A stretch of 64,000 bases of DNA, taken from an uncultured Candidatus Saccharibacteria bacterium. GTDB lineage: Bacteria > Patescibacteriota > Minisyncoccia > Phycocordibacterales > CAIZLB01. The notes below the pieces were generated by a model. The model was not told the origin of the DNA. It ran no database searches and worked only from the letters and a program-made list of their open reading frames with translations. Positions 16,865-48,160 of this stretch are shown piece by piece; positions within the stretch are counted from its first letter, which is position 1, and the number at the start of each line of letters is the position of its first letter. Made by a program: the position numbers and the translations under genes. The stretch is taken from assembly GCA_964417855.1 (NCBI GenBank), contig CAYQJB010000001.1, positions 166,709 to 230,708 on the forward strand. The letters run 5' to 3'.

Positions 16865-17086
16865 ATTAAATTATGTTAATTGTACTTAAAATTTTAGTTT
16901 ATTTTCAAATTATACGCTGTTTGATTTTTCTTAAAATTAAGCGTATTCTTTGAACCATACAGACATCCAGACAAAGCCCTAGATCAATAATTTTGAACCT
17001 ACTGTGGATAACTCCACAAAAGTACCAAAACCATGACAAATCCAAAACTCAGATAAACCCACTATTATATATAATACACTTTGAAC

Positions 17087-19443: not shown

Positions 19444-19716
19444 ATGAATAAAGCAGCATTGGTTGACAAAGTAAATGAAGTACTAGGAACAACAAAAGTT
19501 CAATCTGAGGAAGTTGTAAATACTATCTTTGATAGTATTACAGCTACACTTAAGAAAGGCGAAGAAGTTTCAGTAGCTGGTTTCGGTATCTTTTCTGCAA
19601 AGAAGAGAGCCGCACGTTCTGCTCGTAACCCAAGAACAGGAGAAATCGTAAAGGTTGCAGCTATGAATGTTCCAAAGTTTAGAGCAGCAAAGGCTCTTAA
19701 GGAAGCAGTTAAATAA
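19444..19716 (+). CDS. hup: DNA-binding protein HU
   Basis: 90 aa. The ...GFGIF...RNPRTGE...VPKFRAAKALK pattern is the bacterial HU/IHF-fold signature. Confidence 0.92.
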   Translation: MNKAALVDKVNEVLGTTKVQSEEVVNTIFDSITATLKKGEEVSVAGFGIFSAKKRAARSARNPRTGEIVKVAAMNVPKFRAAKALKEAVK

Positions 19717-22864: not shown

Positions 22865-23476
22865 TTAGTTGAAAAGCGGCAAAACCTTAACCTTACAGCT
22901 CACAAGGTTTGTTTTTGTTACACGTGAACCAGAATGATGAAGACTTATACAAATACCGAGGAATTTAAGGCTTTCTTCCTTAATATCAAAGTCCATACAA
23001 TATTTTAAGGCCATCAATCTGACTTTTCTTAACTTCTCCTTCGTTAGGTTGATCTCTGGCTTCAGCCACTCCACACCCTTTCCGTCTCTAATAACACTTA
23101 TACTAGGGCCAAAAAGGTCGTCTCCCCCACTGTCTTGATTAGAAGGGATTCTAAGGGTTTTAACCTCGACTATGTAATAATAACCGTCTTTTTGCGCAAT
23201 TATATCAATCTCACCTATTTTATTCCTATAATTTCTATCAACTATCTGAAAACCGCGTTTTTCTAAAAAAACTACAGCTATACTCTCACCAAGATCACCA
23301 ACCTTCTTATTTGAATTGCTTTTATCCCCTTTGTCTATCACATCTTCTTTATTATGACTTTTAGATCTTATTCCGAGTTTTATTCTTGATTTGTCCTTTT
23401 TAGAACCCACCTTACTTACTTCCACACCCCTTCCTGTGTCAACTTTGTCCTTTTTTGATTGTTCTATTATGATCAT
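22865..23476 (-). CDS. YraN (UPF0102) family endonuclease-like protein with a K-rich N-terminal extension
   Basis: GDLGESIAVVFLEKRGFQIVDRNYRNKIGEIDIIAQKDGYYYIVEVKT is the YraN core, preceded by ~60 aa of Lys/Ser-rich low-complexity sequence. Confidence 0.65.
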   Translation of the reverse strand: MIIIEQSKKDKVDTGRGVEVSKVGSKKDKSRIKLGIRSKSHNKEDVIDKGDKSNSNKKVGDLGESIAVVFLEKRGFQIVDRNYRNKIGEIDIIAQKDGYYYIVEVKTLRIPSNQDSGGDDLFGPSISVIRDGKGVEWLKPEINLTKEKLRKVRLMALKYCMDFDIKEESLKFLGICISLHHSGSRVTKTNLVSCKVKVLPLFN

Positions 23477-23754
23477 TGTTTATTATTTATTACTATTAAC
23501 AAACGGATGATATACAAACCAGATGAAGAACCTATAAAGATTTATTAAAGAAAAGCAAAAGAAAAGATGTACTTTTTAAGAAAAGAGACAAAATATATAG
23601 ATCACCTTCAACCTAGTGTTTCTCATGAAACGTTGAAAATGAGGTTACAAACGGGTTAAACATACAAAAAAACACCATTTAGTAGCAAAATAAGGGTTTC
23701 ATAGGAAACACCCCGTATTATTGTCAAGAAAATAGCAATATTTTACTAAAAGAC

Positions 23755-23886
23755 AGTGGATAGCCACTTATCCACACAATTAAACCTTATTTATAGCCAT
23801 ATATTGCGTTTTTCCTTATAAAATAGCATTTCTGTATAAGCCTGATTTCTATGTCTTTTATACACATATCCACGGAGTTATCCACA
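23755..23886. promoter_or_regulatory. Cluster of four DnaA-box-like 9-mers (two perfect TTATCCACA)
   Basis: Perfect boxes at 23768-23776 and 23878-23886. A 7/9 box at 23866-23874 and an inverted 7/9 box at 23755-23763. All lie in a 500-bp ORF-free region between yraN-like and the tRNA pair. Confidence 0.5.
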
Positions 23887-23991
23887 GTCTAGGACATTTT
23901 ATAAGTCACTTAGGGACAAAAATGCCGTCTCATACCAATCTTAACTACACCGCAATAACCAACCATTCTTTATGATCTAACTATCAAATTG

Positions 23992-24062
23992 TGCGGGTAG
24001 GGAGAATCGAACTCCCGTCTCGTCCTTGGCAAGGACGCATTCTACCACTAAACCATACCCGC
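23992..24062 (-). tRNA. tRNA-Gly (anticodon GCC), no encoded CCA
   Basis: GCGGGTA acceptor stem, anticodon loop UUGCCAA, GGTTCGATTC T-arm. Confidence 0.85.
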
Positions 24063-24103
24063 ATATTATTTTGCTTTATTATTATAACACTAAATTATAA
24101 TTG

Positions 24104-24175
24104 TGCACCCGCCAGGACTCGAACCTGGAATAACGGTTCCGAAGACCGTTGTGATATCCATTTCACCACGGGTGC
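24104..24175 (-). tRNA. tRNA-Arg (anticodon UCG), no encoded CCA
   Basis: GCACCCG acceptor stem, anticodon loop CUUCGGA, GGTTCGAGTCC T-arm. The track ORF 23991..24191 is an artefact across both tRNAs. Confidence 0.8.
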
Positions 24176-24256: not shown

Positions 24257-25783
24257 ATGACTACTAAAGACATAAACAATAATCCAATAAAAGAACTGAG
24301 TAACAAACTACTAAAAAAAATAGACCAGGGTAGTGTTCCTGCCTATATACAGAATATCGTCATCAAACTGCAGGAAGCGGGCTTTTCAGCTTATTTAGTA
24401 GGGGGTTGTGTAAGAGACCTGATATTAAAGAAACAGCCAAAAGACTGGGATATTACAACAAGCGCAAAACCTGAAGATATAATCAAAACTTTTGAAGAGA
24501 CATTTTATGAAAATGACTTTGGAACTGTTGGTATAAAAATAAGAAAAGGGACAGGGGAGACAGAAATAGTAGAAGTTACACCCTATAGAACAGAAGGTGA
24601 TTACTCAGATAGCAGACATCCTGATGAGGTAACTTTCAGCAGTAATATAAAGGACGACCTTCTGAGAAGAGACTTTACAATTAACGCAATGGCATATGAT
24701 TCAGTAAAAGACACTATAGTTGATGAGTTTGAGGGTTTAAAGGACATAAAAGACAAGGTCATAAGGGCAGTAGGAGACCCAGTTAAACGATTTCACGAAG
24801 ATGGACTCAGATTGATTAGGGCGGTTCGTTTTGCTGCCGAATTAGGTTTCATGATTAACATAGACACACAAGAAGCTATCATATCGGAATCCGGGGTTCT
24901 TAAGAAAATTGCAACAGAAAGGATTAGGGAAGAATTCGATAAATTACTTATGTCTAAACAGCCTGCCTTAGGTATAGCGATGGCTCAAAAGCTTGGTTTG
25001 TTGAGTATTTTCTGCCCAGAACTTGAGGGAGCGGTTCATGTGAAACAAAACCAAGCCCATTCTTATGATGTTTTTGAGCATCTCTTGAGGAGTTGTCAGT
25101 GTGCTGCGGACAAAAATTGGAGGCTGGAGATAAGATTAGCTGCTTTATTCCACGATATTGGAAAGCCACCAACAAAAAGGGGTAGTGAAACAAGTGATAT
25201 AACCTTTTATGGACATGAGGTTGTTGGCGCTAAAATGTCTAAAGTTATATTAGAAAGGATGAAGTATCCAACAAAAGTTATTACAGTTGTTACAAAACTG
25301 ATCCGTTGGCACATGTTTTTCTCGGATACTGAACAAATAACACCCTCAGCTGTCCGAAGAATGATAGCAAATGTTGGCAAGGAATACATTTGGGACTTAG
25401 TAGACCTAAGAATTTGCGACCGTGTAGGAACGGGAAGACCCAAGGAAAACCCTTACAGACTTAGAAAATACAGGGCTCTTATTGAGGAGGTGATGATGGA
25501 CCCAATTGATGTGGGGATGCTTAAAATTGATGGAAATACGCTGATTAAGGAATTAAACATACCAGCAGGGCCAATTATAGGACTAATTTTAAATGCTTTA
25601 CTTGAGGAGGTTCTAGAGAAACCAGAACTTAACACACAAGAGTACCTTACAAAAAGGGCTATAGAAATTTCTATGTTTCCCATGAAACAACTCAAGGAAC
25701 TATCTGAAAAGGGGGTATTAAGAAAAAAAGACCTAGAAAATGAGCAAATAGAGGAAATCAGAAAAAAGCACGATATTAGATAG
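24257..25783 (+). CDS. cca: CCA-adding tRNA nucleotidyltransferase with HD domain
   Basis: PolyA-polymerase head domain (AYLVGGCVRDLIL...DWD), followed by an HD domain (LFHDIGKP...GHE...). Confidence 0.85.
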   Translation: MTTKDINNNPIKELSNKLLKKIDQGSVPAYIQNIVIKLQEAGFSAYLVGGCVRDLILKKQPKDWDITTSAKPEDIIKTFEETFYENDFGTVGIKIRKGTGETEIVEVTPYRTEGDYSDSRHPDEVTFSSNIKDDLLRRDFTINAMAYDSVKDTIVDEFEGLKDIKDKVIRAVGDPVKRFHEDGLRLIRAVRFAAELGFMINIDTQEAIISESGVLKKIATERIREEFDKLLMSKQPALGIAMAQKLGLLSIFCPELEGAVHVKQNQAHSYDVFEHLLRSCQCAADKNWRLEIRLAALFHDIGKPPTKRGSETSDITFYGHEVVGAKMSKVILERMKYPTKVITVVTKLIRWHMFFSDTEQITPSAVRRMIANVGKEYIWDLVDLRICDRVGTGRPKENPYRLRKYRALIEEVMMDPIDVGMLKIDGNTLIKELNIPAGPIIGLILNALLEEVLEKPELNTQEYLTKRAIEISMFPMKQLKELSEKGVLRKKDLENEQIEEIRKKHDIR

Positions 25784-25886: not shown

Positions 25887-26382
25887 TAGTTTTTTAAAAT
25901 GTAAAACTCTTTATAGAAAGAGCCTCAGTACTGGACGCAACAAGGTTATAGTTATTATGATGCGGCCGTACTAAGGCCCTCGAAACAAGTGTGGGAAACG
26001 AAACAAGTAGAAACGATTGAGAAAATTGAGATATTTATTTAATTGTTGTGGGTTGTCTCTATGATTATGGGGTAGGCCAGTGTAAGTCCTGTATTCTCCA
26101 TTTAAATGTGATGCCCAGATTAGAGCTCACTAAGCTAATTTTGGGAGAATTTAAAATGTCCTTTATTACCAACCAATCCGTATCATTAAGACTTCCTCAA
26201 AGAACTATTTGACCCGATGTTGGGCCGCTCATCTGTCCTTTATTCTAATTCATATTAAAGACATGTAAAGGACATTATCGTAAATTCTTGTGGATAACTT
26301 TTTATTTATTTATTATTTCATTCTGACCGCTATGATAAAGGACATTCTAGTGTTAAATATTTTGTGAAATTATTTAATTATT

Positions 26383-27210
26383 CTACTGAAATAAGTTATC
26401 CACAACTAATTTTACTGGGCAGTGATCTGAACCTGTAAAATCATCTTCTATTGTGCATGATTTTATTTGATTCATAATTTTCTTCGATACAAAAAAATAA
26501 TCTATTCTCCATCCAACGTTTCTTTCTCGAGCAAACGTTTTCATGTCCCACCAAGTATAAGCGTCTATTTTATGTGGGTGTAACTCCCTAAAAACATCTA
26601 CATACCCAGCTTCAATGAATTTATCAATCCAAATTCTCTCTTCAGGTAAAAATCCTATACTTTTTTTGTTTTGTTTCGGTCTAGCTAAGTCTATTTCCTC
26701 ATGAGCCACATTAACATCACCACAAAAAACAACACTTAAGCCTTTGTTTGTAAGCTTTTTACAGTATTTCAAAAATTCTTTGTAAAAATCAAGTTTATAC
26801 TGAAATCTCTCTGGGGCGCCCCCTCCATTTGGAAAATAGCAGTTAATTAGTGCCCACTTATCAAAAATCAAACATATCATTCTACCTTCCTGATCCATCT
26901 TTGGTATTCCAAACCCATACTCAATTTTATTTGGAGTTGTTAATATGTCCTTCATATATATTGCTATTCCACTGTATCCTTTTTTGAGTTTAGAATGATC
27001 AAAATAACTAACGTAACCTTTAGGGTTTAGTATTTTTTCATCTAACTGATCTACGTGTACCTTGGTCTCTTGCATACACATAAAATCTGTGTTCTGTTGC
27101 ATAATTAACTCAAAAGACCCCTTTCTGTGTATAGCTCTTAAACCATTTACGTTCCATGAAATTATACTTAATTGTTTTTTCATTTTATTAAAGACATTAT
27201 TTTTAATCAT
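26383..27210 (-). CDS. xth: Exodeoxyribonuclease III
   Basis: LSIISWNVNGLRA start; ExoIII catalytic motifs; 275 aa. Confidence 0.9.
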   Translation of the reverse strand: MIKNNVFNKMKKQLSIISWNVNGLRAIHRKGSFELIMQQNTDFMCMQETKVHVDQLDEKILNPKGYVSYFDHSKLKKGYSGIAIYMKDILTTPNKIEYGFGIPKMDQEGRMICLIFDKWALINCYFPNGGGAPERFQYKLDFYKEFLKYCKKLTNKGLSVVFCGDVNVAHEEIDLARPKQNKKSIGFLPEERIWIDKFIEAGYVDVFRELHPHKIDAYTWWDMKTFARERNVGWRIDYFFVSKKIMNQIKSCTIEDDFTGSDHCPVKLVVDNLFQ

Positions 27211-36211: not shown

Positions 36212-37120
36212 ATGAAAAATCCAAATTTAAAAAACAACAGAAGAAGACTCACAAAACAAACAGAACAAGAAGGTTTCATTTCTTCAGGTGAGCCAGTGGG
36301 GGAAACAATGAAGGATTCTGTGTTTGCAAAAAAATCTCTTGGTCAAAATTTTTTAAAGTCCCAAAAGGCACTCAATCAAATTATTGAGGGTGCTGGTGAC
36401 CTAAGGGATAAGACAGTCCTTGAAATTGGCCCTGGAATGGGTTCATTAACCGAAAGACTAATCAAAACCCCCGCAAGCAAAATAATTCTAATTGAGATGG
36501 ATGATAGGCTAATTCCAATACTTACTGAGAAATTTGCTGATGAAATTAAAAACAAAAGAATGGAAATTGTTCATGATGATATTTTAAAAGTAAATTTAAA
36601 TTCAATTGGTCTTACAAAAGGTAATTACAGTTTGATTGCAAATATTCCATATTACATAACAGGTGCAATTATAAGAAATATTATTGGTGGTGATATTTAT
36701 CCAGAAAGAGCTGTGGTTTTAGTACAAAAAGAAGTTGCAGAAAGAATAATTTCTCGTGATAAAAAAGGAAGCCTATTGTCTATCGCCGTGAAAGCAATTG
36801 GCGATCCAAAAATAATTGGCAAGGTTCCAAAAGGTGCCTTTGTTCCATCGCCAAAAGTTGATTCCGCAATACTATTAATTGATAATATTTCAAAAAAAAC
36901 ATTTGACGAAAGTTCTAAAAAAGAAAAAAGGTTTTTTGATATCCTACACGCTGGTTTTGCACACAAAAGAAAATTATTGAAGAGCAATTTAAAAGAACAT
37001 AATATTTTTATTGATGCTGAAAAAGCATTAGAGGTGTGTAATATAAAAAGTGACGCAAGATCTGAAACATTAACATTAGAACAGTGGAAAAAATTATCAT
37101 CTCTTGATATACTTTACTAG
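36212..37120 (+). CDS. rsmA: 16S rRNA (adenine1518/1519-N6)-dimethyltransferase RsmA/KsgA
   Basis: SLGQNFL...LEIGPGMGSLT SAM-binding motif, and NIPYYIT. The true start is probably at the internal MKDSVF. Confidence 0.9.
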   Translation: MKNPNLKNNRRRLTKQTEQEGFISSGEPVGETMKDSVFAKKSLGQNFLKSQKALNQIIEGAGDLRDKTVLEIGPGMGSLTERLIKTPASKIILIEMDDRLIPILTEKFADEIKNKRMEIVHDDILKVNLNSIGLTKGNYSLIANIPYYITGAIIRNIIGGDIYPERAVVLVQKEVAERIISRDKKGSLLSIAVKAIGDPKIIGKVPKGAFVPSPKVDSAILLIDNISKKTFDESSKKEKRFFDILHAGFAHKRKLLKSNLKEHNIFIDAEKALEVCNIKSDARSETLTLEQWKKLSSLDILY

Positions 37121-37959
37121 TGAAAAATTCTAATTCTCATAATAAAGTTTTAATACTTGGTGCGATATGTATTTCAATTCTAGCTGGAGTTCTATCTTAC
37201 AGAATTGCAGATATTAAAAATCAGCAAGACTTAAATAAGCGACCAAAAATTTCTGATGTTTTTGACATAACGGGGGAAAAAGAGGACCCTACAACCAACA
37301 GAATTTTAACAGCCATAGATAATTCAAACAATTCACTTGAAGCATTGTTACCCCAAGTTGATCCATTCACAATAACAGATAGTGATTCAGCAACAGCGAG
37401 AATGGCAAAACAAGTTTATTCTGACTATGTTAATCAAGAGGCAGGAAACTCTGATCTAACCGTAGCAGACATAGCCCAGAATGCCTTAGGTCAAATGTCA
37501 GGTTCAGACATGCCAAGGCTTAAGTATAATTTTAATAATATTACACTAACCGAGAGGTCTGATAGTGAGGATTTGAGACTTTATGGAAATAATTTTGCGG
37601 AAATATATACCAGAAATTTAAACTTAGTCGCACAGAATCAACAAAAATACTCAAATAGCTTAGCAGCATTGGCGGATGTTTATGAGAATATAAGCAAGGA
37701 ATTACTCAAAATTAAATGTCCAATCGGTCTTTCTTCGTATCATCTAACAGTTGTAAATAATTTTCAAGTTCTAGCTGACTCATTTAGATTAATAGACATG
37801 CAAAGTCAAGATCCTGTTAAATCTCTTCTTGGTGTTAAATCAGCCAAGGAAGCAGGAGCCGAAAACGATCAAATGTTTATAAATATTAGTAAGTATTTTA
37901 AAAAGAATGGTATAATTTTTAGCAATAATGAAATAGGGGTGATATGGAACTCCAACTAA
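37120..37959 (+). CDS. Hypothetical membrane-anchored protein, first gene of the T4SS-like cluster (possible VirB8/PrgL-like)
   Basis: GTG start overlapping the ksgA stop; single N-terminal TM (VLILGAICISILAGVLSY). The functional assignment is positional only. Confidence 0.35.
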   Translation: MKNSNSHNKVLILGAICISILAGVLSYRIADIKNQQDLNKRPKISDVFDITGEKEDPTTNRILTAIDNSNNSLEALLPQVDPFTITDSDSATARMAKQVYSDYVNQEAGNSDLTVADIAQNALGQMSGSDMPRLKYNFNNITLTERSDSEDLRLYGNNFAEIYTRNLNLVAQNQQKYSNSLAALADVYENISKELLKIKCPIGLSSYHLTVVNNFQVLADSFRLIDMQSQDPVKSLLGVKSAKEAGAENDQMFINISKYFKKNGIIFSNNEIGVIWNSN

Positions 37960-37969
37960 ACAATTAAAA

Positions 37970-39799
37970 ATGAACAAAACAAAAGACAGCAATATTTGCA
38001 AAAAAGATGGTGGAAAAAAAATTGGCATAGTAATATTTTTTTCTTTAGCTTTTTTAATTTTTAGTTTGGGTGTCGCCAGTGCTCAAACAAATCTTACGGA
38101 CAACCCACTTTTAAATCTAGCTCCTGAACCACCAGCTGCATCAACTCAAACCAAAGTAGACACAGCAGGAGCTCCAAAAGCAACAGTAGTTACAGAGGGT
38201 GCACCAAAAGCAACAATTGTTGATGAAAGTGGGGCCAGTAACGCTTCAGCAAATAAAAGTAATACTGGAACAACGGCGGCCGCACCAGGTGGAGCAGCAT
38301 CCTCTGTAACATCAACTGGAGCTTGCGTTGGTGGTCAAATGCTTGCAAAACTAATGACAAGCGCCATTTCAGCTGGAATAGGCGCCTTAAAAGGAGGAAC
38401 AATGGGTGTTGCAGAACGTTTGTTAAATGTACCATCAACAAACGCACTAACGGAGTCAGCAAGAAACCAGGAAGCTAAATTAAATGCTGAAAATGGTATA
38501 TTTATTTTTGGTGTTCAAACTGGAATAAGTTGGGATGGAATTGCATACTGTATTGTAAACACAGTAATAGATTATATTGTTAATTCAACAATTCAATGGG
38601 CAAACTCAGGATTCAAAGGAAACCCTGCCTTTATCAGAAACCCTCAGCAATTTTTTAAGGGATTAGCAGACCAAACAGCAGCACAATTTATTAGAGAGGT
38701 TGCGTATAATGAAACAGGTATAGATGTCTGTAAGCCATTTAGAGTTGTAATTGCAACAGGTTTAGCTGGTAGTTATTCTAATTTAACAAACGGAAAGTCT
38801 ATACAGTCTTGTTCACTATCACAAATGCAGCAAACAGCAATGCAGTCAGGAAAATATTCAATAACAACCCCTACGGATTGGATTGCTTTAACAAAACCTC
38901 AGAACAATAAGTATTATTCATATATAAACGCAGGGGAAGAGATGAGCAAAAGAGTTGCTGTCAAAAATAACACAGCAAGACTTGACCTTTCAATAAACAG
39001 AGGGTTTCTTAGTTACAAAAAATGTAAAGATGAAAGCAAGCCAGAAAGCAAAACAAACCCTTGTGACACACTAACACCGGGATCAATGATTGCTGATTCG
39101 CTGTCTACAACACTAAATATACCAAAAAACAGACTTGTATCAGCTCAAAAATTTGATCAAATGGTTGATGCGATTGTGAACAACCTGATAAAGATAGCGT
39201 TGAGCAAGACGCTTGAAAGCGTAACTGGACAGGCCCCAACAGCCGCTGTTCAATCAGACTATTATAATATAGTAGCAAACAACGCAACAGCTTATAATGC
39301 TGCAAATATACCTACAGGCCCAGTTGGGCAAGGTGGAACTATAGGTACTTCCGGAGGGCCTCTTCTTCAGCAAATATTGAGTGGTGCCACTTTTTCTAAT
39401 AACGATTGGAATACCTATGCCGTACAACAATTGGTTGCATCGGGTATAGCCAACCTACCAGTTAGTGATGCTTCAACATATTTTTCAGGCGGGGTACCAT
39501 CAGTTCAAGGATACTTAAGTATAATGGCAGCAATAGCACAAAAAGAATCTGGTGGTCAAGCAAAACCAGCAAGATACCAGGAGACAAAGATTGGTAATGG
39601 TACCACATATTCAGTGGGATTAATGAGTCTAACACCCGGAGATTTGGGCACAGGAAATATGACATACGATGACCTAGAAGATCCATATAACAACATTAGA
39701 ATTGCCGTAGGAATTATGGCCAACTTAGTAAGAAAATATGGTGTTCTTCATGGGCCAAACAACACAGGATTATCAGCATATTGGTCAACGTTTAGATAG
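37970..39799 (+). CDS. Secreted protein with C-terminal SLT-type lytic transglycosylase domain (VirB1/PrgK/TcpG-like)
   Basis: Signal peptide; C-terminus AIAQKESGGQ...YSVGLMSLTPGDLG...DPYNNIRIAVGIMANL carries the SLT E-S / GLMQ / AYN-like motifs. Confidence 0.6.
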   Translation: MNKTKDSNICKKDGGKKIGIVIFFSLAFLIFSLGVASAQTNLTDNPLLNLAPEPPAASTQTKVDTAGAPKATVVTEGAPKATIVDESGASNASANKSNTGTTAAAPGGAASSVTSTGACVGGQMLAKLMTSAISAGIGALKGGTMGVAERLLNVPSTNALTESARNQEAKLNAENGIFIFGVQTGISWDGIAYCIVNTVIDYIVNSTIQWANSGFKGNPAFIRNPQQFFKGLADQTAAQFIREVAYNETGIDVCKPFRVVIATGLAGSYSNLTNGKSIQSCSLSQMQQTAMQSGKYSITTPTDWIALTKPQNNKYYSYINAGEEMSKRVAVKNNTARLDLSINRGFLSYKKCKDESKPESKTNPCDTLTPGSMIADSLSTTLNIPKNRLVSAQKFDQMVDAIVNNLIKIALSKTLESVTGQAPTAAVQSDYYNIVANNATAYNAANIPTGPVGQGGTIGTSGGPLLQQILSGATFSNNDWNTYAVQQLVASGIANLPVSDASTYFSGGVPSVQGYLSIMAAIAQKESGGQAKPARYQETKIGNGTTYSVGLMSLTPGDLGTGNMTYDDLEDPYNNIRIAVGIMANLVRKYGVLHGPNNTGLSAYWSTFR

Positions 39800-39881
39800 G
39801 GATAATGTGTAAGTTAAAAATAACCAAAATGGTTAATAAACAACTTATTATTTTTTTAAAGATGGTATATAATATTAACGA

Positions 39882-42362
39882 ATGAATCTGTTTAAAAACA
39901 CAACAATAAAAACAAAAGTTTCTTTAGTGGTGGTGTTTTTATTCTTATTTTTAACACACAATAAAGTGGTATCGGCTAGTCCGTTCGATGACCAAGTTAA
40001 AGCTGCAACACAGCAGGAGTCTGGGATTGTTAAAGACTCTAATGGCCAAATAAGTACAGCACCAGTAGGGTGGTTCTCAACTAACTATGGCGAACTATAC
40101 AATGCGGCGACCCCTGAAAAAAAAGCATTGATGACTCCAGAGATGTCAAAGTTATATGACACTATATTACCTTTAGAACAACAACTTATTGGTCTAAATA
40201 ATGATGCGAATGCAGGCAATCAAAGCCAAAGAACACAACTTGCTTTATCAATTGCACAAGCAAAAGTAGCCTTTAAGACAAACCTTGGTCTTGGTGCTAC
40301 AACCGAAGAAGCTACTGCTGCACAACTTCAAGGTCAGGTTATTTTTTGTCTAGGTGGATCCGGCGTCATTCCAACATTGAATATCCCTGGATGTATTGCA
40401 ATCGTATCATATGAAATACTATATTTAACATCTTGGGTTCTTTGGGTTGCAGCACTGATGTTTGATTGGACAATTGCATGGAGCCTTTCCATGCGAGATA
40501 TTGTTAACAGCTTTGCCGCAATACAATATGGATGGGAGACCTTTAGAAATGTTATTAACTTGTTCTTCATACTTATTCTTGTTTACATATCTATAGCTAC
40601 AATACTTCAAATAAGTGGATATGGTTACAAGCAATTACTTGGAAAATTGGTTATTGCAGCTTTTTTAATTAACTTTAGTATGTTCTTTACTGAAATTATA
40701 ATAGATCTAAGTAATATGACAGCCCTTGTTTTCTATAAGCAAATAATGGTCGATGCAGATAAGTTTGCGTCCTTAGGATCAGCTGGAGCACCAGGCGGAG
40801 CTTCTACTACAACAAATCAAAACCTTTCTCTTGGAATAATGAATGCACTTGGTTTGCAGACAATTTGGGGTGTAGGCCAAGCCAATAAAGGACTTGGTAC
40901 GGCTTCTTCATCACAAACACAAGGAAACAATCCGGCTGTAACTGGGGGAGGAAGTGTTGCTGCAGCTGGAACTGGTCAGGCTGCTATTATTGACCCTTGG
41001 AAGATGACTCTTGTTGGTCTTGGTGGATCTGTCTTCATACTAATCCTGTCTTTTATTTTCTTTGCTGCTTCCTTAATGTTTATGGTAAGGGTACTTATAT
41101 TAATTATTCTTATAATTACCTCACCAATCGCATTTTCAGCAAACGTGCTACCTGGTACAAAATTCTTGTCCGATAAATGGTGGAAACAACTCAATAGTAA
41201 TGTTTTGTTTGCACCCGTCTACATGGCTTTAATGTTTATTACATTAAAAATGATTTGGGGAGGAAGTAATCATGTTACAAACTTGCTGTCCTTGCTTGCT
41301 AACGAGAGCGCAAGTGGTATGCAATCTATAGTATTCTTCTTGTTACTATCTGCCATGTTGGTTGCCTGCCTTACTGTAGCGTCATCCTTAGGTGCAACAG
41401 GGTCTAAGACAATGCAAAGCTGGGGAAAGAGTGCTAGTTCAGGTGCAAAGAAGTTTGCAATAAACAGAGCGGCAGCTCCAGTTAGTTACATAGCAGACAA
41501 GGCATCTAAAAATGCTTTTATAGCAAGAAATGCACCTATACTTCTTCAGGGCGCAGACAAACTTGCTCAAGCAAAACTTGGTGGAACTTCAACATATAGA
41601 TCTAGAGTTGCTGATGACAAAAAGATGTATCAAGCAAGAGGGGATTTAGTTAAAAATGCAGTTACAGGAGAGCTTATCAGAGGTAGAAACGAAAGCTTAA
41701 AAGCTTTTGATGATAGAAAGAAAAACCAAACAGAAGCCGGGGAGATGGCACAAAGGAAACAATTAGGAGTGGGTGAAGGTAACGAAAACGCCTCAATGAG
41801 ATTTAATAAGGGGGCTCAACAAGCTAGACAGGATTTTATGAATAAATCTGAATCTAAAAGTAAAGACAAAGAGGTCAGTGCCGCAACGGTAGAAAAAAAT
41901 CAAAAAGAAATATCTACTGGAGCGATAGCTTTAATCTCTTCAATGAAGGCGTCTGGGGCCCTTAAAAATTTACACCCCGATGAAGCCAAAAAAACAGAGG
42001 ATATAATGAAAGAAATAACTGATGCAAGTGATGCAAAAAAAGAGGTAACACCAGAAATGATTGGAAAGCTTGTTCAAGAATCAAAGGCTCCAATTGATAC
42101 CTTATCAAAAACAATAGCAACAATGGAAAAGAACATGGAGAGATATGCAGGGGTGATTAAGAACACAAGAGATCCATCAATGCTACTTGCTGCAACTCAA
42201 AAACTTGGGGCTATGCAAGCGTCCCACACAATAGCTTCTCAAAAGAGGACTGATATTAAAAATCTTGTTGAACAACAAAAAGCTTTGGCAAAAAGGTCTG
42301 AAGATATAGCAATGCAACAAAAACTTAGAACAGTCACTGAAGAAAACAAACCTAAAGTATAA
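39882..42362 (+). CDS. Polytopic membrane protein, VirB6/TrbL/TcpH-like
   Basis: Signal peptide, then 6 or more TM helices rich in Trp/aromatic residues (YLTSWVLWVAALMFDWTIAWSL...), and a ~350-aa hydrophilic K/A/Q-rich C-terminal tail. The 826-aa size matches Gram-positive VirB6 analogues. Confidence 0.5.
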   Translation: MNLFKNTTIKTKVSLVVVFLFLFLTHNKVVSASPFDDQVKAATQQESGIVKDSNGQISTAPVGWFSTNYGELYNAATPEKKALMTPEMSKLYDTILPLEQQLIGLNNDANAGNQSQRTQLALSIAQAKVAFKTNLGLGATTEEATAAQLQGQVIFCLGGSGVIPTLNIPGCIAIVSYEILYLTSWVLWVAALMFDWTIAWSLSMRDIVNSFAAIQYGWETFRNVINLFFILILVYISIATILQISGYGYKQLLGKLVIAAFLINFSMFFTEIIIDLSNMTALVFYKQIMVDADKFASLGSAGAPGGASTTTNQNLSLGIMNALGLQTIWGVGQANKGLGTASSSQTQGNNPAVTGGGSVAAAGTGQAAIIDPWKMTLVGLGGSVFILILSFIFFAASLMFMVRVLILIILIITSPIAFSANVLPGTKFLSDKWWKQLNSNVLFAPVYMALMFITLKMIWGGSNHVTNLLSLLANESASGMQSIVFFLLLSAMLVACLTVASSLGATGSKTMQSWGKSASSGAKKFAINRAAAPVSYIADKASKNAFIARNAPILLQGADKLAQAKLGGTSTYRSRVADDKKMYQARGDLVKNAVTGELIRGRNESLKAFDDRKKNQTEAGEMAQRKQLGVGEGNENASMRFNKGAQQARQDFMNKSESKSKDKEVSAATVEKNQKEISTGAIALISSMKASGALKNLHPDEAKKTEDIMKEITDASDAKKEVTPEMIGKLVQESKAPIDTLSKTIATMEKNMERYAGVIKNTRDPSMLLAATQKLGAMQASHTIASQKRTDIKNLVEQQKALAKRSEDIAMQQKLRTVTEENKPKV

Positions 42363-42364
42363 TT

Positions 42365-43063
42365 ATGACAACATTTACAGAACAAGAATTTATAGACAAG
42401 ATGAATTTACTGCCTGCAGAGTTACAAAAAAAACTTCTTTTACTTGATTATGATGATGATTTCATTAGTATCATCAATTATAATAGTATTAAGCCAGCAG
42501 AAACTATCAACGCAATTGGTTTGGCCGTTAGGTTGGTAGCTCTTGGTTTTTCCTCAAAGCAAGAATTATTTGAATCTGTTTCTAATGAAGTCTTAGTTGA
42601 AGATGAAGCCAGACACATATTCAGTGAAATAGACAGAACAATACTAGTACCAAACAACCTTAAGGGTATTATCGAAACAGGAATAGAATTACACACTGAA
42701 GGACAAGAGGATGCAACAAACACTGAAGACAAGTATTCAACTCACAACATCACAGAAACAGCAGAAGACATTCTGAAAGAAATTGAAAATCCAACACCAG
42801 CTACGTCCTCAATGGTTTCTAGTTTTAACAAACAAACTACCACAACACTGACGGCTGTAGGGCCTCATGATCAGCTTTCAGTCGATGGTTTAACTAATGA
42901 GTCCTCAAATATTATAAAGAATCCTCAAAACACAGCAACACCAACCGATACAACACCTGCACCAAACAAAGAAGGACAACTTGAAGCAAAATTAACAGAA
43001 ACTGTGATTCAACCAGTAAAATCAACATATTATAAGGTAGATCCATATAGGGAGGAGATGTAG
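42365..43063 (+). CDS. Hypothetical cytoplasmic protein (paralogue of the next gene)
   Basis: The N-terminus TEQEFIDKMNLLPAELQKKLLLLDYDD resembles TEQFNKLPESFKTAIKASDYDK of 43095..43442. Confidence 0.35.
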   Translation: MTTFTEQEFIDKMNLLPAELQKKLLLLDYDDDFISIINYNSIKPAETINAIGLAVRLVALGFSSKQELFESVSNEVLVEDEARHIFSEIDRTILVPNNLKGIIETGIELHTEGQEDATNTEDKYSTHNITETAEDILKEIENPTPATSSMVSSFNKQTTTTLTAVGPHDQLSVDGLTNESSNIIKNPQNTATPTDTTPAPNKEGQLEAKLTETVIQPVKSTYYKVDPYREEM

Positions 43064-43094
43064 GTACCTATAAATCAATTGAATAATTAAAAAC

Positions 43095-43442
43095 ATGACA
43101 GCAACATCCATAGAAAGAAACACAGAACAATTTAACAAGCTTCCTGAAAGCTTCAAAACAGCAATTAAAGCTAGCGATTATGATAAATCACTAGCTTTAA
43201 TTTCAAAGGAACATAAACTACACATTGATCAGTCTTCTATGTTAGAGGAATTATTAGCAAAACTTATTTTTGGAGATATTGAATCTGAAGATATCATTTC
43301 TGAGATGAAATCAAAGTTAAATCTTTCAAAAGAAGAGGCAACAAAGATTGCCGCAGAACTTGATCAGATGATAATTAAAGAAATTAAACGTAATTTAATG
43401 AATATTCAGAAGGAGACAACTGTAAAAGAAGACGTAGAATAA
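43095..43442 (+). CDS. Hypothetical small protein (paralogue of 42365..43063 N-domain)
   Basis: Shared N-terminal motif as in the previous entry; 115 aa; no TM. Confidence 0.35.
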   Translation: MTATSIERNTEQFNKLPESFKTAIKASDYDKSLALISKEHKLHIDQSSMLEELLAKLIFGDIESEDIISEMKSKLNLSKEEATKIAAELDQMIIKEIKRNLMNIQKETTVKEDVE

Positions 43443-43468
43443 TTGTCATGATATAATTGTTTTGATAA

Positions 43469-43924
43469 ATGAGATATCAAACACCACAATTTATTGAGGA
43501 GGAAACAAAACTATTTGGCCCACTTACTTTTAAGCAGTTCGTATATCTAATTGGAGGAGCTGGTATCTCTTTTGCTGTATACAAAATGCTTCCGTTTCTT
43601 TTGGCAATACTAATAATCGCACCTGTTGCTGGAGCCTCGCTTGCTTTGGCTTTCTATAAGATAAATGAAAGACCTTTTATAGACGCCGTGGAAGCAGCCT
43701 TCTATTTTATTATATCAAACCGTCTTTACACGTATCAAAAAATAGATAAACCTACTCAGCAATTAAGAACTTCACAAAAGACAATGATTGCCCCCGTACC
43801 TAAGATTGGGGCATCCACAAGCAGACTTAAGGATTTGGCATGGAGCTTAGATATCAATGAGAATATAAAAGATAAAAGTAAGGACAACTTTGATATGGGG
43901 GTTAATGATAAAATAAAAATATAA
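43469..43924 (+). CDS. PrgI/TcpE-family (VirB3-like) small membrane protein
   Basis: RYQTPQFIEEETKLFGPLTFKQFVYLIGGAGISFAVYKM and a two-TM layout match the PrgI family pattern. It lies directly upstream of VirB4. Confidence 0.6.
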   Translation: MRYQTPQFIEEETKLFGPLTFKQFVYLIGGAGISFAVYKMLPFLLAILIIAPVAGASLALAFYKINERPFIDAVEAAFYFIISNRLYTYQKIDKPTQQLRTSQKTMIAPVPKIGASTSRLKDLAWSLDINENIKDKSKDNFDMGVNDKIKI

Positions 43925-43932
43925 TTAATAAA

Positions 43933-44589
43933 ATGGCATCAAATCAAGAAAATTTTTCAAAACCTACACAAGATTTTGTCCCTATAAAAGAAGTTAGAGA
44001 TGGAATTGTTATATTAAAAGATGGTTCTATGAGGGCTATTCTTCTTGCTTCTTCTATTAACTTTGCATTGAAGTCTCCTGAAGAACAACAGTCTGTTCTT
44101 TATCAGTTTCAAAACTTTTTAAATTCAATAAACTTTTCTATACAAATCTTTGTTCAATCAAGAAGACTAGATATTACGCCTTATATTAACCTTCTTGAAG
44201 ATAGAATAAAATTCCAATCAAGTGAACTTATGAAGGTTCAAACAAGGGAGTACATGGACTTCGTTAGAAATCTAACTGAGTCAGTAAACATTATGACAAA
44301 AAGTTTCTTTGTTGTTGTTCCATATTCTCCAACTGTACTTAATAAAAAAGGGGGTGTGTTTGGAGGTATGTTTGGAGGTAAAAAAACATCTAAAGAATCT
44401 GAGAATGACGAGTATCTTCAGTTTGAAGAATTTAAAAGCCAACTTCAACAAAGAGTAGAGGTTGTAGAACAAGGTCTTGTTAGATGTGGAGTTAGAATCG
44501 CTCAACTTGGAACTGAAGAAATCATTGAGTTCTTCTACAAACTCTTCAATCCAGGTACTGTTGAAAAACCAATAGATATGTCTAAGTAA
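43933..44589 (+). CDS. VirB4/PrgJ/TcpF-like ATPase, N-terminal domain (separate ORF)
   Basis: FVPIKEVRDGIVILKDGSMRAILLASSINFALKSPEEQQSVLYQFQNFLNSI resembles the N-terminal CagE/TrbE/VirB4 region of Gram-positive VirB4 homologues. It ends with a TAA 60 nt before the next ATG. Confidence 0.55.
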   Translation: MASNQENFSKPTQDFVPIKEVRDGIVILKDGSMRAILLASSINFALKSPEEQQSVLYQFQNFLNSINFSIQIFVQSRRLDITPYINLLEDRIKFQSSELMKVQTREYMDFVRNLTESVNIMTKSFFVVVPYSPTVLNKKGGVFGGMFGGKKTSKESENDEYLQFEEFKSQLQQRVEVVEQGLVRCGVRIAQLGTEEIIEFFYKLFNPGTVEKPIDMSK

Positions 44590-44649
44590 GTTTTGGTTTG
44601 TTGATATCTGGAATTTTTTTATATTTTAGAGTACAATTAAAATAATAAT

Positions 44650-46497
44650 ATGAGCCTATTAGATTTTTTAAAGAAGCCTCAAGAGGAATCTTCACCAATT
44701 AGTTCCATTCTACCTAAGGAAATTTACCAATCTGGTGTTTTAGAACTACAAGACATAATCGCACCTTCTGGTTTAAAAATAAGTCCAAAGACAATCAACT
44801 TAGGAGAGAAGATTGTTAGAACATTCTTTGTTATTTCTTATCCAAGATTTTTATCATCGAACTGGTTTTCTCCAATAATTAACCTCGACAAGGTTTTTGA
44901 TATTTCGATTTTTATACACCCAGTAGACACAGCTACTGTACTTAGACAATTTACAAAAAAAGTTGCTGATATTGAAGTTGATATAAGTACGAGAGAGACT
45001 AAGGGATTAGTTAGAGATCCGAAGTTAGATACTGCCTATCAAGACCTAGAAGAGCTGCGTGACAAGCTACAGCAGGCACAGGAGAGACTTTTTGACATAG
45101 GTCTATACATTGCTATATATGGTGAAGACGAGCAAGAATTAGACAAAATTGAATCAGAAATAAAATCTATTCTTGAATCAAACTTGGTTTTCATTAAGCC
45201 CGCCCTTTTCCAACAAGAACAAGGCTTTCAAAGTGTTTTACCAATTGGTGAAGACAAGCTTGGGGTTCACTCTAAATTAAACTCTGAACCACTATCAAGT
45301 ATTTTCCCATTTATTTCTTTTGACCTTACATCAGATAAAGGAATTCTTTACGGTATAAACAGACACAACTCAAGTCTTATTCTTTTTGATAGATTTTCAC
45401 TGGAAAACTACAACTCTGTAACATTTGCTAAAGCTGGTTCCGGAAAATCTTATCAAACAAAACTAGAGATTATTAGATCTATGATGTTTGATACAGATGT
45501 TATAGTACTCGACCCAGAACGTGAGTATGAATACCTTGCTGAAGCAACTGGTGGTAGATATTTTAATATTTCCCTAACATCAGATCACCACATCAATCCA
45601 TTTGACCTACCGGTTCCAAGAGAAGGGGAATCATCATCAGACGTTCTAAGATCAAACATTATTAACCTTGTTGGATTATTTAGAATAATGCTTGGAGGAT
45701 TAACAGCAGAGGAGGATGCTGTTGTTGATAGAGCCATCACAGAAACTTACGCCCTTAAAGATATTACTCCTGAATCAAACTTTGCAGCCGCAGAACCTCC
45801 ACTTATGTCAGACTTTGAGCTTGTTCTTAGTGGAATGGAAGGGGGAGAGTCATTAGCACAAAGACTTACAAAGTACACAAAAGGAACATGGGCTGGTTTT
45901 ATCAACAGACCATCAAACGTAGACATCAACAAGAAGTTTGTTGTTTTTTCACTTAGAGATATGGAAGAAGAACTGAAGCCTGTTGCTATGTATATTGTTA
46001 TGCACTATATATGGAACGCTATTAGAAAGGAGCTTAAGAAAAGACTTTTGGTCATTGATGAGGCATGGTACTTAATGAAATCAGAAGATACAGCTTCATT
46101 CTTGCTTGGTCTAGCAAAAAGAGGAAGAAAGTATTATTTGGGACTTGCTACAATTACACAGGACGTTGAGGATTTTTTGAAGTCTCCATACGGTCTTCCT
46201 ATTATTTCAAACTCTTCTATTCAAATCTTATTAAAGCAATCTCCATCTTCTATTGATATTGTTCAAAAAACATTTAACTTAACGGATGAAGAAAAATATT
46301 TACTTCTTGAATCTGATGTGGGGGAGGGGATGTTTTTTGCTGGTCTAAAACACGTAGCAATCAAGGTTATTGCATCCTATACGGAGAATCAAATAATTAC
46401 ATCTAAGCCATCAGAGGTTCTACAGATTAAAAAGGAAAAGGCAGAACTTGCTGCACAAAAAGAAGAGGAGATGGATAAATTAAAAAAGGTTCTATAG
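44650..46497 (+). CDS. VirB4-like T4SS ATPase, C-terminal ATPase module
   Basis: Walker A FAKAGSGKSYQT, Walker B LVIDEAWYLM, and conservation along the VirB4 C-terminal domain; 615 aa. Confidence 0.8.
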   Translation: MSLLDFLKKPQEESSPISSILPKEIYQSGVLELQDIIAPSGLKISPKTINLGEKIVRTFFVISYPRFLSSNWFSPIINLDKVFDISIFIHPVDTATVLRQFTKKVADIEVDISTRETKGLVRDPKLDTAYQDLEELRDKLQQAQERLFDIGLYIAIYGEDEQELDKIESEIKSILESNLVFIKPALFQQEQGFQSVLPIGEDKLGVHSKLNSEPLSSIFPFISFDLTSDKGILYGINRHNSSLILFDRFSLENYNSVTFAKAGSGKSYQTKLEIIRSMMFDTDVIVLDPEREYEYLAEATGGRYFNISLTSDHHINPFDLPVPREGESSSDVLRSNIINLVGLFRIMLGGLTAEEDAVVDRAITETYALKDITPESNFAAAEPPLMSDFELVLSGMEGGESLAQRLTKYTKGTWAGFINRPSNVDINKKFVVFSLRDMEEELKPVAMYIVMHYIWNAIRKELKKRLLVIDEAWYLMKSEDTASFLLGLAKRGRKYYLGLATITQDVEDFLKSPYGLPIISNSSIQILLKQSPSSIDIVQKTFNLTDEEKYLLLESDVGEGMFFAGLKHVAIKVIASYTENQIITSKPSEVLQIKKEKAELAAQKEEEMDKLKKVL

Positions 46498-46505
46498 AAA
46501 AACAA

Positions 46506-46546
46506 ACACCCCACCGCTCATTTTATGAATAGTGGGGTGTTTTTAT
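46506..46546 (+). terminator. Rho-independent terminator after VirB4
   Basis: ACACCCCAC...GTGGGGTGT stem followed by TTTTT. Confidence 0.65.
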
Positions 46547-46581
46547 ATATTATTATCTTGAAATCTGTTAATATATAACTA

Positions 46582-47043
46582 ATGAATGAAAGGCAGGCCA
46601 AAAATCAACAGCGTCTACAGAGTGGTAAACAACTTGGTCAGGATTCTTCTGTTGATTCAAAAAACAATGACACGTCTGAAGGCGGTGCTGACAACAGCTC
46701 TGGTGAAAAAAAAATTACCCAATCTGTTTTTTTTAAACTGTTAACTGTTTTACTAATTCTTGATATAATCGGATTAATTCCATTTATTGGATGGGCAATA
46801 AGCACTGTTGCATCGCTTTTAATATTTAGAAAATTTGGGGTTAAATTTCACTACAAAAACATCATGAAAGTTGGTACTTGTGACTTAGTTAAGGTAATTC
46901 CAGGAGTTAGTCTTATTCCTACTTTTGTAATGAGTGGAATTTTAACAATTGGACCTATGGTTAGCGGTCTTGGAGAAGGAATTCCTGGAGGGCAACATGT
47001 TGCAAACAAAGTACAGAAAGCTATTTCTATGACTAAAAAATAA
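46582..47043 (+). CDS. Small two-TM membrane protein (T4SS-cluster associated)
   Basis: Polar N-terminus; hydrophobic helices LLTVLLILDIIGLIPFIGWAISTVASLLIF and VSLIPTFVMSGILTIGPMV. Confidence 0.35.
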   Translation: MNERQAKNQQRLQSGKQLGQDSSVDSKNNDTSEGGADNSSGEKKITQSVFFKLLTVLLILDIIGLIPFIGWAISTVASLLIFRKFGVKFHYKNIMKVGTCDLVKVIPGVSLIPTFVMSGILTIGPMVSGLGEGIPGGQHVANKVQKAISMTKK

Positions 47044-47107
47044 AGTATTTATAAAGTTATAAACAAAAAATTACTTTCGTTGTACAATTAGTGATATAAT
47101 TAATAAG

Positions 47108-48160
47108 ATGATTAAAAAAAACAAACACTTACTTATTTCAACACTTTCTTTGATTGTTTTATTTTTAGTTTTTATTCTAATAAACAAAACAGAGGCACAG
47201 GTAGGGGATCCGTCTAGTATTCCAATTCCACAACAAATAAAGGAAATAAAGCAGCAGTTAGATATAAACATTTCCCCTGAGGTACCGGAACCAAATCAAG
47301 ACGTGACAATAACAGTGGAGGCCTATGGTTTGGATTTAAATTCCACAGATATGCAGTGGTTGATAAATGGTAAAGAAAAAGTTAGGGGTCTTGGTGAGAA
47401 AAAATTCACTTTAAATGTTGGGAACTCTGGGCAAAGTACGGTTACGTTAAACATTACACCCAAAGACCAACCTTTGATTTCCAGAGTTTTTGTTTTTAAT
47501 CCTTCCAATGTTGATCTTTTGTGGCAAGCCGAAACTTATACGCCCCCATTTTATAAAGGAAAAGCTTTATTTTCCCCAGAATCGTCAGTGACAATGGTTG
47601 CTATTCCAAATTTTATTAATGGTACCACAAGGACAAATGATTCAAATGTTGTATACAAGTGGAGTATAGACAGAGAGGTTCAGGGGGACTACTCGGGTTA
47701 TGGAAAAAATTCTTTTCAATACACATCAGATATATTGTCTCTGGATACAGAGATAGAGATCGAGGCTTATCCTTCTAGTCAACAAACAAGAAAGGGTGTT
47801 GGTAGCGCCTTGTTGTCTACAAAAAATGCTTTTCTTCTGTTTTATGAAGACAACCCAACAAACGGTGTAATGTTTAACTACTCTCTTAAGAATCAGGTTA
47901 ATTTAGGAACAAGAAACGAATCAAAGATAAGCGCCTTTCCTTTTAACTCTAGTTCAAATAGTAAAAGTTCTGGTTTAGAATACACATGGTATGTAAACTC
48001 TGAAAAGATTGATATACCGTTGAGTACAAACACAATAACAATCAAAAAGAACTCTGCTCAAAAAATTGATGTTGCAAGTATACTTGTTTCCTTATCAAAC
48101 CCTACACACATAATGCAAGAGACCCAAAATAGCATCGATTTTTTGTTTAACAATAATTAG
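47108..48160 (+). CDS. Secreted hypothetical protein (signal peptide, beta-rich repeats)
   Basis: Signal peptide MIKKNKHLLISTLSLIVLFLVFILINKTEA. No family recognised. Confidence 0.4.
   Translation: MIKKNKHLLISTLSLIVLFLVFILINKTEAQVGDPSSIPIPQQIKEIKQQLDINISPEVPEPNQDVTITVEAYGLDLNSTDMQWLINGKEKVRGLGEKKFTLNVGNSGQSTVTLNITPKDQPLISRVFVFNPSNVDLLWQAETYTPPFYKGKALFSPESSVTMVAIPNFINGTTRTNDSNVVYKWSIDREVQGDYSGYGKNSFQYTSDILSLDTEIEIEAYPSSQQTRKGVGSALLSTKNAFLLFYEDNPTNGVMFNYSLKNQVNLGTRNESKISAFPFNSSSNSKSSGLEYTWYVNSEKIDIPLSTNTITIKKNSAQKIDVASILVSLSNPTHIMQETQNSIDFLFNNN

Follow-up and report, generated by a model that had tools for sequence, protein, structure and literature searches.

In Bacillus subtilis, DnaA acts as a transcription factor at the sda, dnaA and ywlC promoters. 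Clusters of DnaA boxes outside the origin (oriC) of this species (Ishikawa 2007, Okumura 2012) are reportedly intergenic clusters of consensus boxes, mostly origin proximal, and are said to bind DnaA without unwinding, to damp initiation and often to serve as promoter elements. In Escherichia coli, the datA locus lies just downstream of the tRNA-Gly(GCC) operon, from which read-through enters the boxes (PMC10950094), and each DARS core comprises three boxes, of which boxes I and II face each other head to head (PMC10380432). In Caulobacter crescentus, DnaA binds boxes in the parS region (Mera et al. 2014, reviewed in PMC6399470). Here we describe a cluster of DnaA boxes at positions 23,755 to 23,886 of a 64,000-nucleotide stretch of DNA (the window; contig CAYQJB010000001.1, positions 166,709 to 230,708, of GenBank assembly GCA_964417855.1) from an uncultured member of the Patescibacteria. 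Comparative sequence analysis within one clade indicates that the cluster is deeply conserved in a group of these uncultivated bacteria, that, almost certainly, it functions in DnaA binding away from oriC, and that its most likely role is to hold or sense DnaA, not to start replication. We lean towards reading it as a non-origin, DnaA-binding "origin mimic" array embedded in a centromere-like parS locus, where it would serve titration or the coupling of initiation to segregation.

Six perfect copies of the 9-mer TTATCCACA occur in the window, at 17003 (minus strand), 23768 (plus), 23878 (plus), 26289 (minus), 26396 (plus) and 51915 (plus), and all six had been placed exactly by an earlier reading of the sequence (the original prediction). 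In 100 dinucleotide-preserving shuffles of the window the mean was 0.71 and the maximum 3, with six reached in none of the 100; the excess over chance, earlier set against a rough expectation of about 0.8, is thus borne out. The boxes with eight of nine matches (8/9) reported at 53648 and 58128 also are present. The cluster had been described as two perfect and two 7/9 boxes within 130 bp, in a tract of about 500 bp free of open reading frames (ORFs) between a yraN-like gene and tRNA-Gly/Arg, 28 kb from dnaA. Both the tract (23477-23990, without a long ORF) and the distance (dnaA is at 51927-53324) are correct. Those four boxes are there, but the cluster is slightly richer than described, with an additional 8/9 box at 23858. 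It is made up as follows.

23747-23776, plus strand: sub-site A1, consisting of motif M2 as TAAAAGACA (23747-23755), an inverted 7/9 box, CCAC and a perfect box
23755-23763, minus strand (inverted): DnaA box of A1, AGTGGATAG, 7/9
23768-23776, plus strand: DnaA box of A1, TTATCCACA, 9/9
23852-23886, plus strand: core module A2, 35 bp, consisting of M2, box 1, box 2, AG and box 3, with a single box orientation
23858-23866, plus strand: DnaA box 1 of A2, TTATACACA, 8/9
23866-23874, plus strand: DnaA box 2 of A2, ATATCCACG, 7/9
23878-23886, plus strand: DnaA box 3 of A2, TTATCCACA, 9/9

M2 is the motif TGTCYTTTA (reverse complement, TAAARGACA); in A2 it reads TGTCTTTTA (23852-23860) and overlaps box 1. 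The layout of A1, M2-N12-box in the plus orientation, is kept in close relatives, and the inverted 7/9 box is particular to this genome. On the minus strand, 3' of the tRNA operon, the inverted pair at 23755-23776 with the TGTCTTTTAG following it was called as an intrinsic-terminator-like hairpin; this hairpin is likewise genome specific and is not conserved in close relatives. Domain IV of the DnaA encoded by this genome contains the segments PRQ...SLPxIG...GGRDHTTVIH, which match the box-contacting segment of the E. coli and B. subtilis proteins. Because this box-reading segment is canonical, binding to boxes of the TTATCCACA type is expected by analogy with the E. coli and B. subtilis structures.

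The locus was compared with distant loci fetched via the CCA enzyme (41 to 58% identity) and with six close relatives fetched via YraN (56 to 73% identity). The nearest relatives of both the CCA enzyme and DnaA are metagenome-assembled genomes (MAGs) of Paceibacterota/Parcubacteria. The module-bearing set comprised 21 loci, namely, 13 aligned distant loci, two more that also carry the A2 module (L013 and L021) and the six close relatives. Across the 13 distant loci the module, with the consensus TGTCTTTTATACACAnTATnCACAnAGTTATCCACA, was the sole alignable block of the spacer, and invariant columns fell only within it. Searches of the distant loci (blastn and nhmmer) with the bodies of region A and region B, the latter lying downstream of xth, found no similarity, and only the closer YraN-fetched relatives could be aligned with them. 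In the six close relatives A2 is almost unchanged, and the upstream sub-site is shared as TAAAAGACA-N12-box. In each of the 21 loci, even in L006 and L013, which are rearranged, A2 is found 5' of yraN with its boxes pointing away from that gene. Between 83 and about 400 bp separate the array from the yraN start, and one locus (L019) has yraN without the array. The adjoining tRNA genes switch orientation freely among relatives while the relation between array and yraN stays fixed. This, and the position of the array 3' of the minus-strand tRNA operon, leaves no place for the earlier suggestion that the cluster is a DnaA-regulated promoter of the tRNA transcript.

These comparisons also bear on whether the cluster arose by chance or TTATCCACA belongs to a dispersed repeat that has nothing to do with DnaA. 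Of the six perfect boxes, one would fit such an account:

17003-17011, minus strand: lone perfect box between an rsmE-like gene and clpP

This box is absent from the corresponding spacer of close relatives L163 and L164 and may be lineage specific or a chance match. Extended to the cluster, the account is hardly credible, since no shuffle reached six boxes, the module is conserved at the level of single bases across a family-level clade with flanks that are not conserved, the same 9-mer builds the unwinding system between dnaA and dnaN, and no repeat family reaches beyond the boxes. That the cluster is nonrandom, as originally proposed, is supported by both the count (6 boxes against 0.71 expected) and the conserved module.

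The array sits among parS sites, that is, copies of the 16-bp palindrome TGTTNCACGTGNAACA, which were counted at up to 2 mismatches. Within 2.5 kb of the module in the 21 loci (100 kb in all) we found 66 sites against 0.45 expected by shuffling, and the remaining 271 kb of those loci contained 2, giving an enrichment near the module of about 90-fold. In the dnaA loci of relatives, 8 sites were found in 913 kb, about background density; the cca and dnaA loci come from separate collections and therefore are not pairable genome by genome. Taken together, these counts suggest that the partition locus of this group seems to lie about 30 kb from oriC. In most loci parS is on the yraN side of the module, about 110 to 200 bp away (modal distance, about 155 bp); it is 153 to 154 bp away in 4 of 6 close relatives and 110 to 197 bp away in ten distant ones. 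The close relatives carry near-perfect sites, such as TGTGGCACGTGAAACA, in the same spacer and further parS sites next to cca, and in L017 a 5-kb stretch contains eight perfect sites, with the box variant of this locus in the middle. The window contains 2 sites at the threshold used (0.18 expected) plus 3 weaker ones, all five within 2.8 kb (22.9 to 25.7 kb).

22916-22931: parS-like site TGTTACACGTGAACCA, 1 mismatch, in the 3' part of yraN; found at the same place in 6 of 6 close relatives
23617-23632: parS-like site TGTTTCTCATGAAACG, 13/16, a core-level match; relatives have GTTACnnATGAAAC at the same place
23695-23710: degenerate parS-like palindrome GGTTTCATAGGAAACA, a core-level match; positional counterpart of the parS found 153 to 154 bp from the module in close relatives
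25033: fifth parS-like site, a core-level match
25674-25689: parS-like site TGTTTCCCATGAAACA, 2 mismatches, at the 3' end of cca; its counterpart is kept in close relatives

Judging from the canonical motif, ParB would bind at this locus.

oriC itself is predicted to lie in the spacer between dnaA (51927-53324) and dnaN (53708-54808), with rnpA and yidC divergent from dnaA. The features of this region are as follows.

51915-51923, plus strand: perfect box before dnaA; in relatives, one or two boxes of plus orientation are found 50 to 180 bp ahead of the gene
53432-53452, minus strand: two 8/9 boxes, TTATGCACA and TTATACACA, at the end of the oriC spacer that adjoins dnaA
53640-53706, plus strand: predicted oriC unwinding system, consisting of a box pair, GGT, trios and an AT-rich tract up to dnaN

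The tandem boxes of the unwinding system are AAGTCCACA (53640-53648) and, overlapping it, ATATCCACA (53648-53656). They are followed at 53660-53671 by ATA GTA GTA ATA, which places the DnaA-trios 3'-TAT CAT CAT TAT-5' on the lower strand, and 53659-53699 is among the seven least stable 40-bp windows. For a basal unwinding system (BUS), the rule calls for three or more DnaA-trios (NAN triplets, on the strand 3' of the boxes) no more than 16 bp from a box pair (PMC8287927). The dnaA-dnaN layout fits the BUS search rules of that study, with the polarity seen in Firmicutes, and the dnaA loci of relatives follow the same plan with better boxes, i.e., TTATCCACATATCCACA, 2 to 3 nt, (NTN)n and an AT-rich tract. 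Relatives also have one or two minus-orientation boxes at the place of the 53432-53452 pair, and in the dnaA loci L081 to L159 the boxes upstream of the unwinding system show a conserved minus-then-plus orientation pattern. One correction concerns the dnaA-dnaN spacer. It has no perfect 9/9 box in this genome, but it is not box poor, containing three 8/9 boxes and a 6/9 box, among them the tandem pair of the unwinding system.

At 51915, the perfect box probably serves autoregulation or marks the left side of oriC. Relatives align with the longest dnaA ORF from residue 20 to 26, and the DnaA_N domain begins at residue 27; this ORF probably starts too early, and the box therefore likely lies about 70 to 80 bp upstream of the true start, as in relatives, and not 3 bp. 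A further box, at 58128-58136 on the minus strand between ruvC and a 90-amino-acid ORF, is 8/9 here and perfect in relatives; in at least 11 relatives a ruvC-side box is found about 5.5 to 7.7 kb (mostly about 7.1 to 7.7 kb) past the dnaA start. With boxes near ruvC, yraN and xth, DnaA boxes stand beside several recombination/repair genes.

Because the raw G-C skew in the window is dominated by the coding strand, skews were taken at third codon positions with genes split by strand. In relatives, the G-C skew switches sign at dnaA-dnaN (left/minus, +0.079; left/plus, -0.056; right/minus, -0.078; right/plus, +0.058), and the T-A skew does likewise. At the cluster the T-A skew is unchanged from one side to the other (+0.12/+0.11 for minus-strand genes and -0.05/-0.06 for plus-strand genes). 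Across the window and 18 kb of flanks, the cumulative T-A and keto skews fall through 23 to 27 kb, have their trough at 38 to 52 kb and rise from dnaA, the rise to the right of dnaA persisting through minus-strand genes. The original prediction had named a cumulative G-C skew plot of the full contig as a check; the cumulative skews of the window and flanks have their trough elsewhere than at the cluster. The lowest point (about 43 kb) falls inside a block of type IV secretion-like genes, and the sharp skew switch of more distant relatives is missing in the window and in its closest relative, L081. The exact position of the origin in this genome consequently rests mainly on the conserved unwinding system, because of the location of this trough, the missing switch and a G-C third-position skew of about zero right of the cluster. 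The skews do exclude the remote cluster as the origin.

The block at 37000-50500 encodes an SLT-domain protein, PrgI, a TraG/VirB4-like ATPase and many ORFs without assignment. It coincides with a local reversal in the skew trough and may represent origin-adjacent DNA that was inserted or inverted. Counts of genes around dnaA-dnaN (dnaA loci L081 to L160) gave 200 plus-strand against 57 minus-strand genes on the left and 100 minus-strand against 67 plus-strand genes on the right. Genes on both flanks thus point to the predicted origin and, in this conserved block, would be head-on to replication, an unusual arrangement, and the skew switch persists regardless. Because both sides of dnaA point toward oriC in this clade, gene orientation is no guide to the origin. 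An origin near 12 to 35 kb, considered on the basis of raw G-C skew and gene orientation, was dropped, as raw skew mostly tracks the coding strand.

A second origin at the cluster, or the distal half of a bipartite origin as the original prediction had suggested, can be weighed on the same data. Gene orientation diverges at the cluster (yraN on the minus strand and cca on the plus strand), some relatives have long minus/plus runs there with a change in raw G-C skew (in L012, -0.17 versus +0.09), the G-C third-position skew goes from negative to about zero, and the raw G-C skew of the window is flat at 12 to 35 kb. Yet of the features of oriC that were examined the array shares one only, a box cluster that includes a tandem pair. 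DnaA-trios were not found at regions A and B, and there is no NTN register after box 3 in the window or in relatives. Neither 23.4 to 24.0 kb nor 25.8 to 26.4 kb is among the 15 least stable 40-bp or 80-bp windows, so that the remote clusters also lack an unstable AT-rich element. The T-A skew is alike on both sides of the cluster, the cumulative skews are still falling through it, a conserved canonical unwinding system with a matching skew switch is present at dnaA-dnaN, and no known bipartite origin has halves nearly as far apart as 28 kb. We therefore consider a second or bipartite origin very improbable.

What the array does take from oriC is its box pair. Boxes 1 and 2 of A2 copy the oriC pair, TTATnCACA overlapping TATCCACA, and the two sites share the 11-mer CACATATCCAC. 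In place of the trios and the AT-rich element A2 has a third high-affinity box, so that DnaA should be able to load there with nothing that can be opened. As an origin mimic, the array would work as follows. Domain IV of DnaA would engage the four same-orientation boxes of A1 and A2, giving a short head-to-tail oligomer. The locus would keep the initiator close to the origin, beside a ParB-parS complex, and, being duplicated very soon after initiation, would have its capacity doubled at that time, according to the logic of datA and the B. subtilis box clusters. Its centromere-like position could couple initiator status to segregation, as might the boxes in the Caulobacter parS region, or could bound ParB spreading. 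Occupancy might be modulated by a factor that binds TGTCYTTTA and by transcripts reading through from the tRNA operon.

Several observations weigh against this interpretation. The parS sites of this genome are degenerate (1 to 3 mismatches). Neither the window nor 18 kb of extensions nor the fetched loci yielded a parB gene, and a ParB Box II regular expression gave no match across all fetched loci; ParB binding is thus a prediction from the canonical motif. Because a single clade supplied all the loci, array and parS may have come together only once in evolution. Right of the cluster, relatives show a G-C third-position skew of about zero, where negative values would have been expected. DnaA occupancy in this phylum is inferred from sequence alone, as are ParB binding and all functional consequences. 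Finally, the array is linked to yraN in all module-bearing loci, and this invariable linkage leaves room for a transcriptional role.

The genes that border the array are relevant to this last point.

22865-23476, minus strand: yraN (UPF0102, nuclease-like; Pfam PF02021)
23991-24175, minus strand: tRNA-Arg(tcg) and tRNA-Gly(gcc) operon, with transcription heading toward A2

They enclose the 514-bp spacer in which the cluster lies, and cca follows on the plus strand. The gene order in the cca-fetched loci is clpP, rny, yraN, spacer, tRNAs, cca, xth, xerC-like and rpsO. An HU-family gene is located at 19444-19716 of the window.

If the array were a DnaA-dependent transcriptional control element for yraN or another spacer transcript, its constant place 5' of yraN, in rearranged loci as well, would be accounted for, and other conserved boxes of the clade are promoter-like in position (upstream of dnaA, upstream of a candidate noncoding RNA [ncRNA] and near ruvC). 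A sigma-70 promoter scan of the spacer revealed nothing convincing at the array. Near yraN is a conserved TATA-like TTCTATAAA with a plausible -35 element; in this genome, about 320 bp and two parS-like sites separate it from the array. Added to this are the variable distance between array and yraN start, the occurrence of yraN without the array in L019 and the three abutting boxes, which copy the oriC pair and exceed a typical operator. We regard transcriptional control as unlikely but as deserving to be kept in view.

Less likely again is a protein roadblock or boundary, in which array-bound DnaA would stop tRNA read-through or ParB sliding and thereby shield the tRNA genes from the partition complex and vice versa. 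A2 is 105 bp downstream of the tRNA-Arg/tRNA-Gly operon, and no intrinsic terminator was called between tRNA-Gly and A2. In 16 of 21 loci, transcription of a tRNA gene 50 to 390 bp away heads toward the array, and parS is about 110 to 200 bp from the array in most. At datA, tRNA read-through is attenuated by DnaA on box 2 (PMC10950094). The array is retained, however, in the five loci in which the adjacent tRNA gene points away from it. A roadblock also would be compatible with an origin mimic in a parS locus and not exclusive of it.

M2 has a fixed position in the module alignment, where it overlaps box 1. It also precedes the upstream A1 box and recurs with single DnaA boxes downstream of xth (region B), a pairing that holds in distant and rearranged loci. 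The motif is about six-fold enriched within 2.5 kb of the module. It often occurs as palindromes or as 11- to 12-bp direct repeats, which suggests that it is read by a dedicated DNA-binding protein; to our knowledge, it fits none of the consensus sequences for IHF, CtsR, Spo0A or WalR. LexA was considered as a possible reader, since an unusual direct-repeat motif is reported for the SOS response of Patescibacteria. Occurrences in the window are at 23747-23755, 23852-23860, 26157-26344 and 53545-53610, and M2 is present in the oriC spacer of both this genome and L081. Region B and the RNA gene predicted beside it are laid out as follows.

26234-26404: region B tract, with M2 at 26234-26242 (minus), 26266-26274 (plus) and 26336-26344 (plus) and perfect boxes at 26289-26297 (minus) and 26396-26404 (plus)
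25905-26236, minus strand: candidate structured ncRNA, between cca and xth
L161:2173-2506, L162:2472-2787 and L163:2425-2751: candidate ncRNA in close relatives
L164:1779-2155, L165:2079-2463 and L166:2225-2600: candidate ncRNA in close relatives

The box at 26396-26404 falls in the last codons of xth. Region B is kept downstream of xth in distant relatives even after rearrangement, and its layout is nearly identical in the six close relatives. The candidate ncRNA folds better on the minus strand (z = -2.5) than on the plus strand (z = -0.4), and its RNAalifold consensus has 73 pairs, 13 of them with compensatory changes. In relatives it is 316 to 385 nt long, with a variable insert and an invariant 63-nt 3' hairpin followed by a U-run. 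It matched no Rfam family; Rfam runs at gathering and E-value thresholds over regions A and B returned tRNAs and terminator-like leader matches only. A putative promoter for the RNA at 26269-26242 overlaps M2, and the perfect box at 26289 is about 20 bp upstream of the -35 hexamer.

These elements could belong to one system. Tentatively, and on the doubtful side of our own judgment, DnaA in Paceibacterota would be a structural component of the centromere, in a three-part hub of parS, origin-mimic array and TGTCYTTTA site. Such a hub would hold DnaA beside the ParB complex and serve as a single locus for segregation (or SMC loading) and replication licensing, modulated by tRNA read-through and linked to a structured RNA under DnaA-box control. 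If this is true, the hub would represent an initiation-control logic that has not been described in any phylum. Paceibacterota are not known to possess most of the described DnaA regulators. Replication control in the Candidate Phyla Radiation (CPR) is essentially unstudied, and our full-text searches of the literature turned up a general note on Peregrinibacteria but nothing that describes the oriC architecture, parS sites or DnaA regulatory loci of Patescibacteria. The present analysis places a predicted oriC with a canonical unwinding system at dnaA-dnaN, identifies a parS cluster and provides a compact, strongly conserved module on which recombinant DnaA can be tried directly. Should this module titrate DnaA or reprogramme it at a centromere, datA-like control would have arisen independently in very small genomes and would be wired to partition. 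Landmarks near the origin also may aid in orienting CPR MAG assemblies and in checking both these and growth-rate (coverage-slope) estimates.

Among the described systems, DARS1 and DARS2 of E. coli share with this locus a three-box core in a noncoding spacer. The conserved boxes here are all head to tail and not arranged as a head-to-head box I/II pair (PMC10380432), and the sole inverted pair (23755-23776) is genome specific; the suggestion of a DARS-like reactivating site is not upheld. Compared with the B. subtilis BUS (boxes 6/7 plus DnaA-trios; PMC8287927), boxes 1 and 2 reproduce the overlapping BUS pair of the clade itself, but where the BUS continues with a GC spacer, trios and an AT-rich element, the array has AG and a third perfect box, and there is no strand-skew switch at the array. 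The B. subtilis clusters and the sda promoter boxes (PMC6399470) resemble the array in being intergenic, mostly origin-proximal consensus boxes. The clusters are looser, are not copies of the oriC box 6/7 pair and are without a fixed relation to parS or a conserved partner motif.

With E. coli datA the parallels are those of position. Both are non-origin DnaA-box clusters near oriC that would be duplicated soon after initiation, both occupy a spacer directly downstream of a tRNA-Gly(GCC) operon (read-through here being predicted from gene geometry), and both have a site for a second DNA-binding factor, here a putative one, among the boxes. The differences are that the co-motif here is TGTCYTTTA and not the IHF consensus, that the boxes abut at a pitch of 8 to 12 bp in one orientation and are not arranged around a bend site, and that the array is embedded in a parS cluster. 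The datA-like or titrating site put forward in the original prediction remains viable as far as a nonrandom, non-oriC array and the tRNA-Gly parallel are concerned; its IHF component, at datA a single binding site with a set spacing to the essential boxes, was not found, as inspection of 23700-23990 by eye gave no match to WATCAANNNNTTR. By analogy with datA, the array could stimulate DnaA-ATP hydrolysis. Any similarity to datA would be convergent, as the organism is phylogenetically unrelated to E. coli.

The parS region of Caulobacter likewise has initiator sites within a partition locus, a few to tens of kilobases from the origin. It belongs to another phylum and has another box arrangement, whereas here a tight triple box usually stands about 110 to 200 bp (modal distance, about 155 bp) from parS, and ParB was not identified in the searched sequence of this genome. 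By analogy, the Caulobacter parallel suggests crosstalk between initiation and segregation via DnaA domain IV. The array is tied to parS and to M2, two associations that the original prediction had missed.

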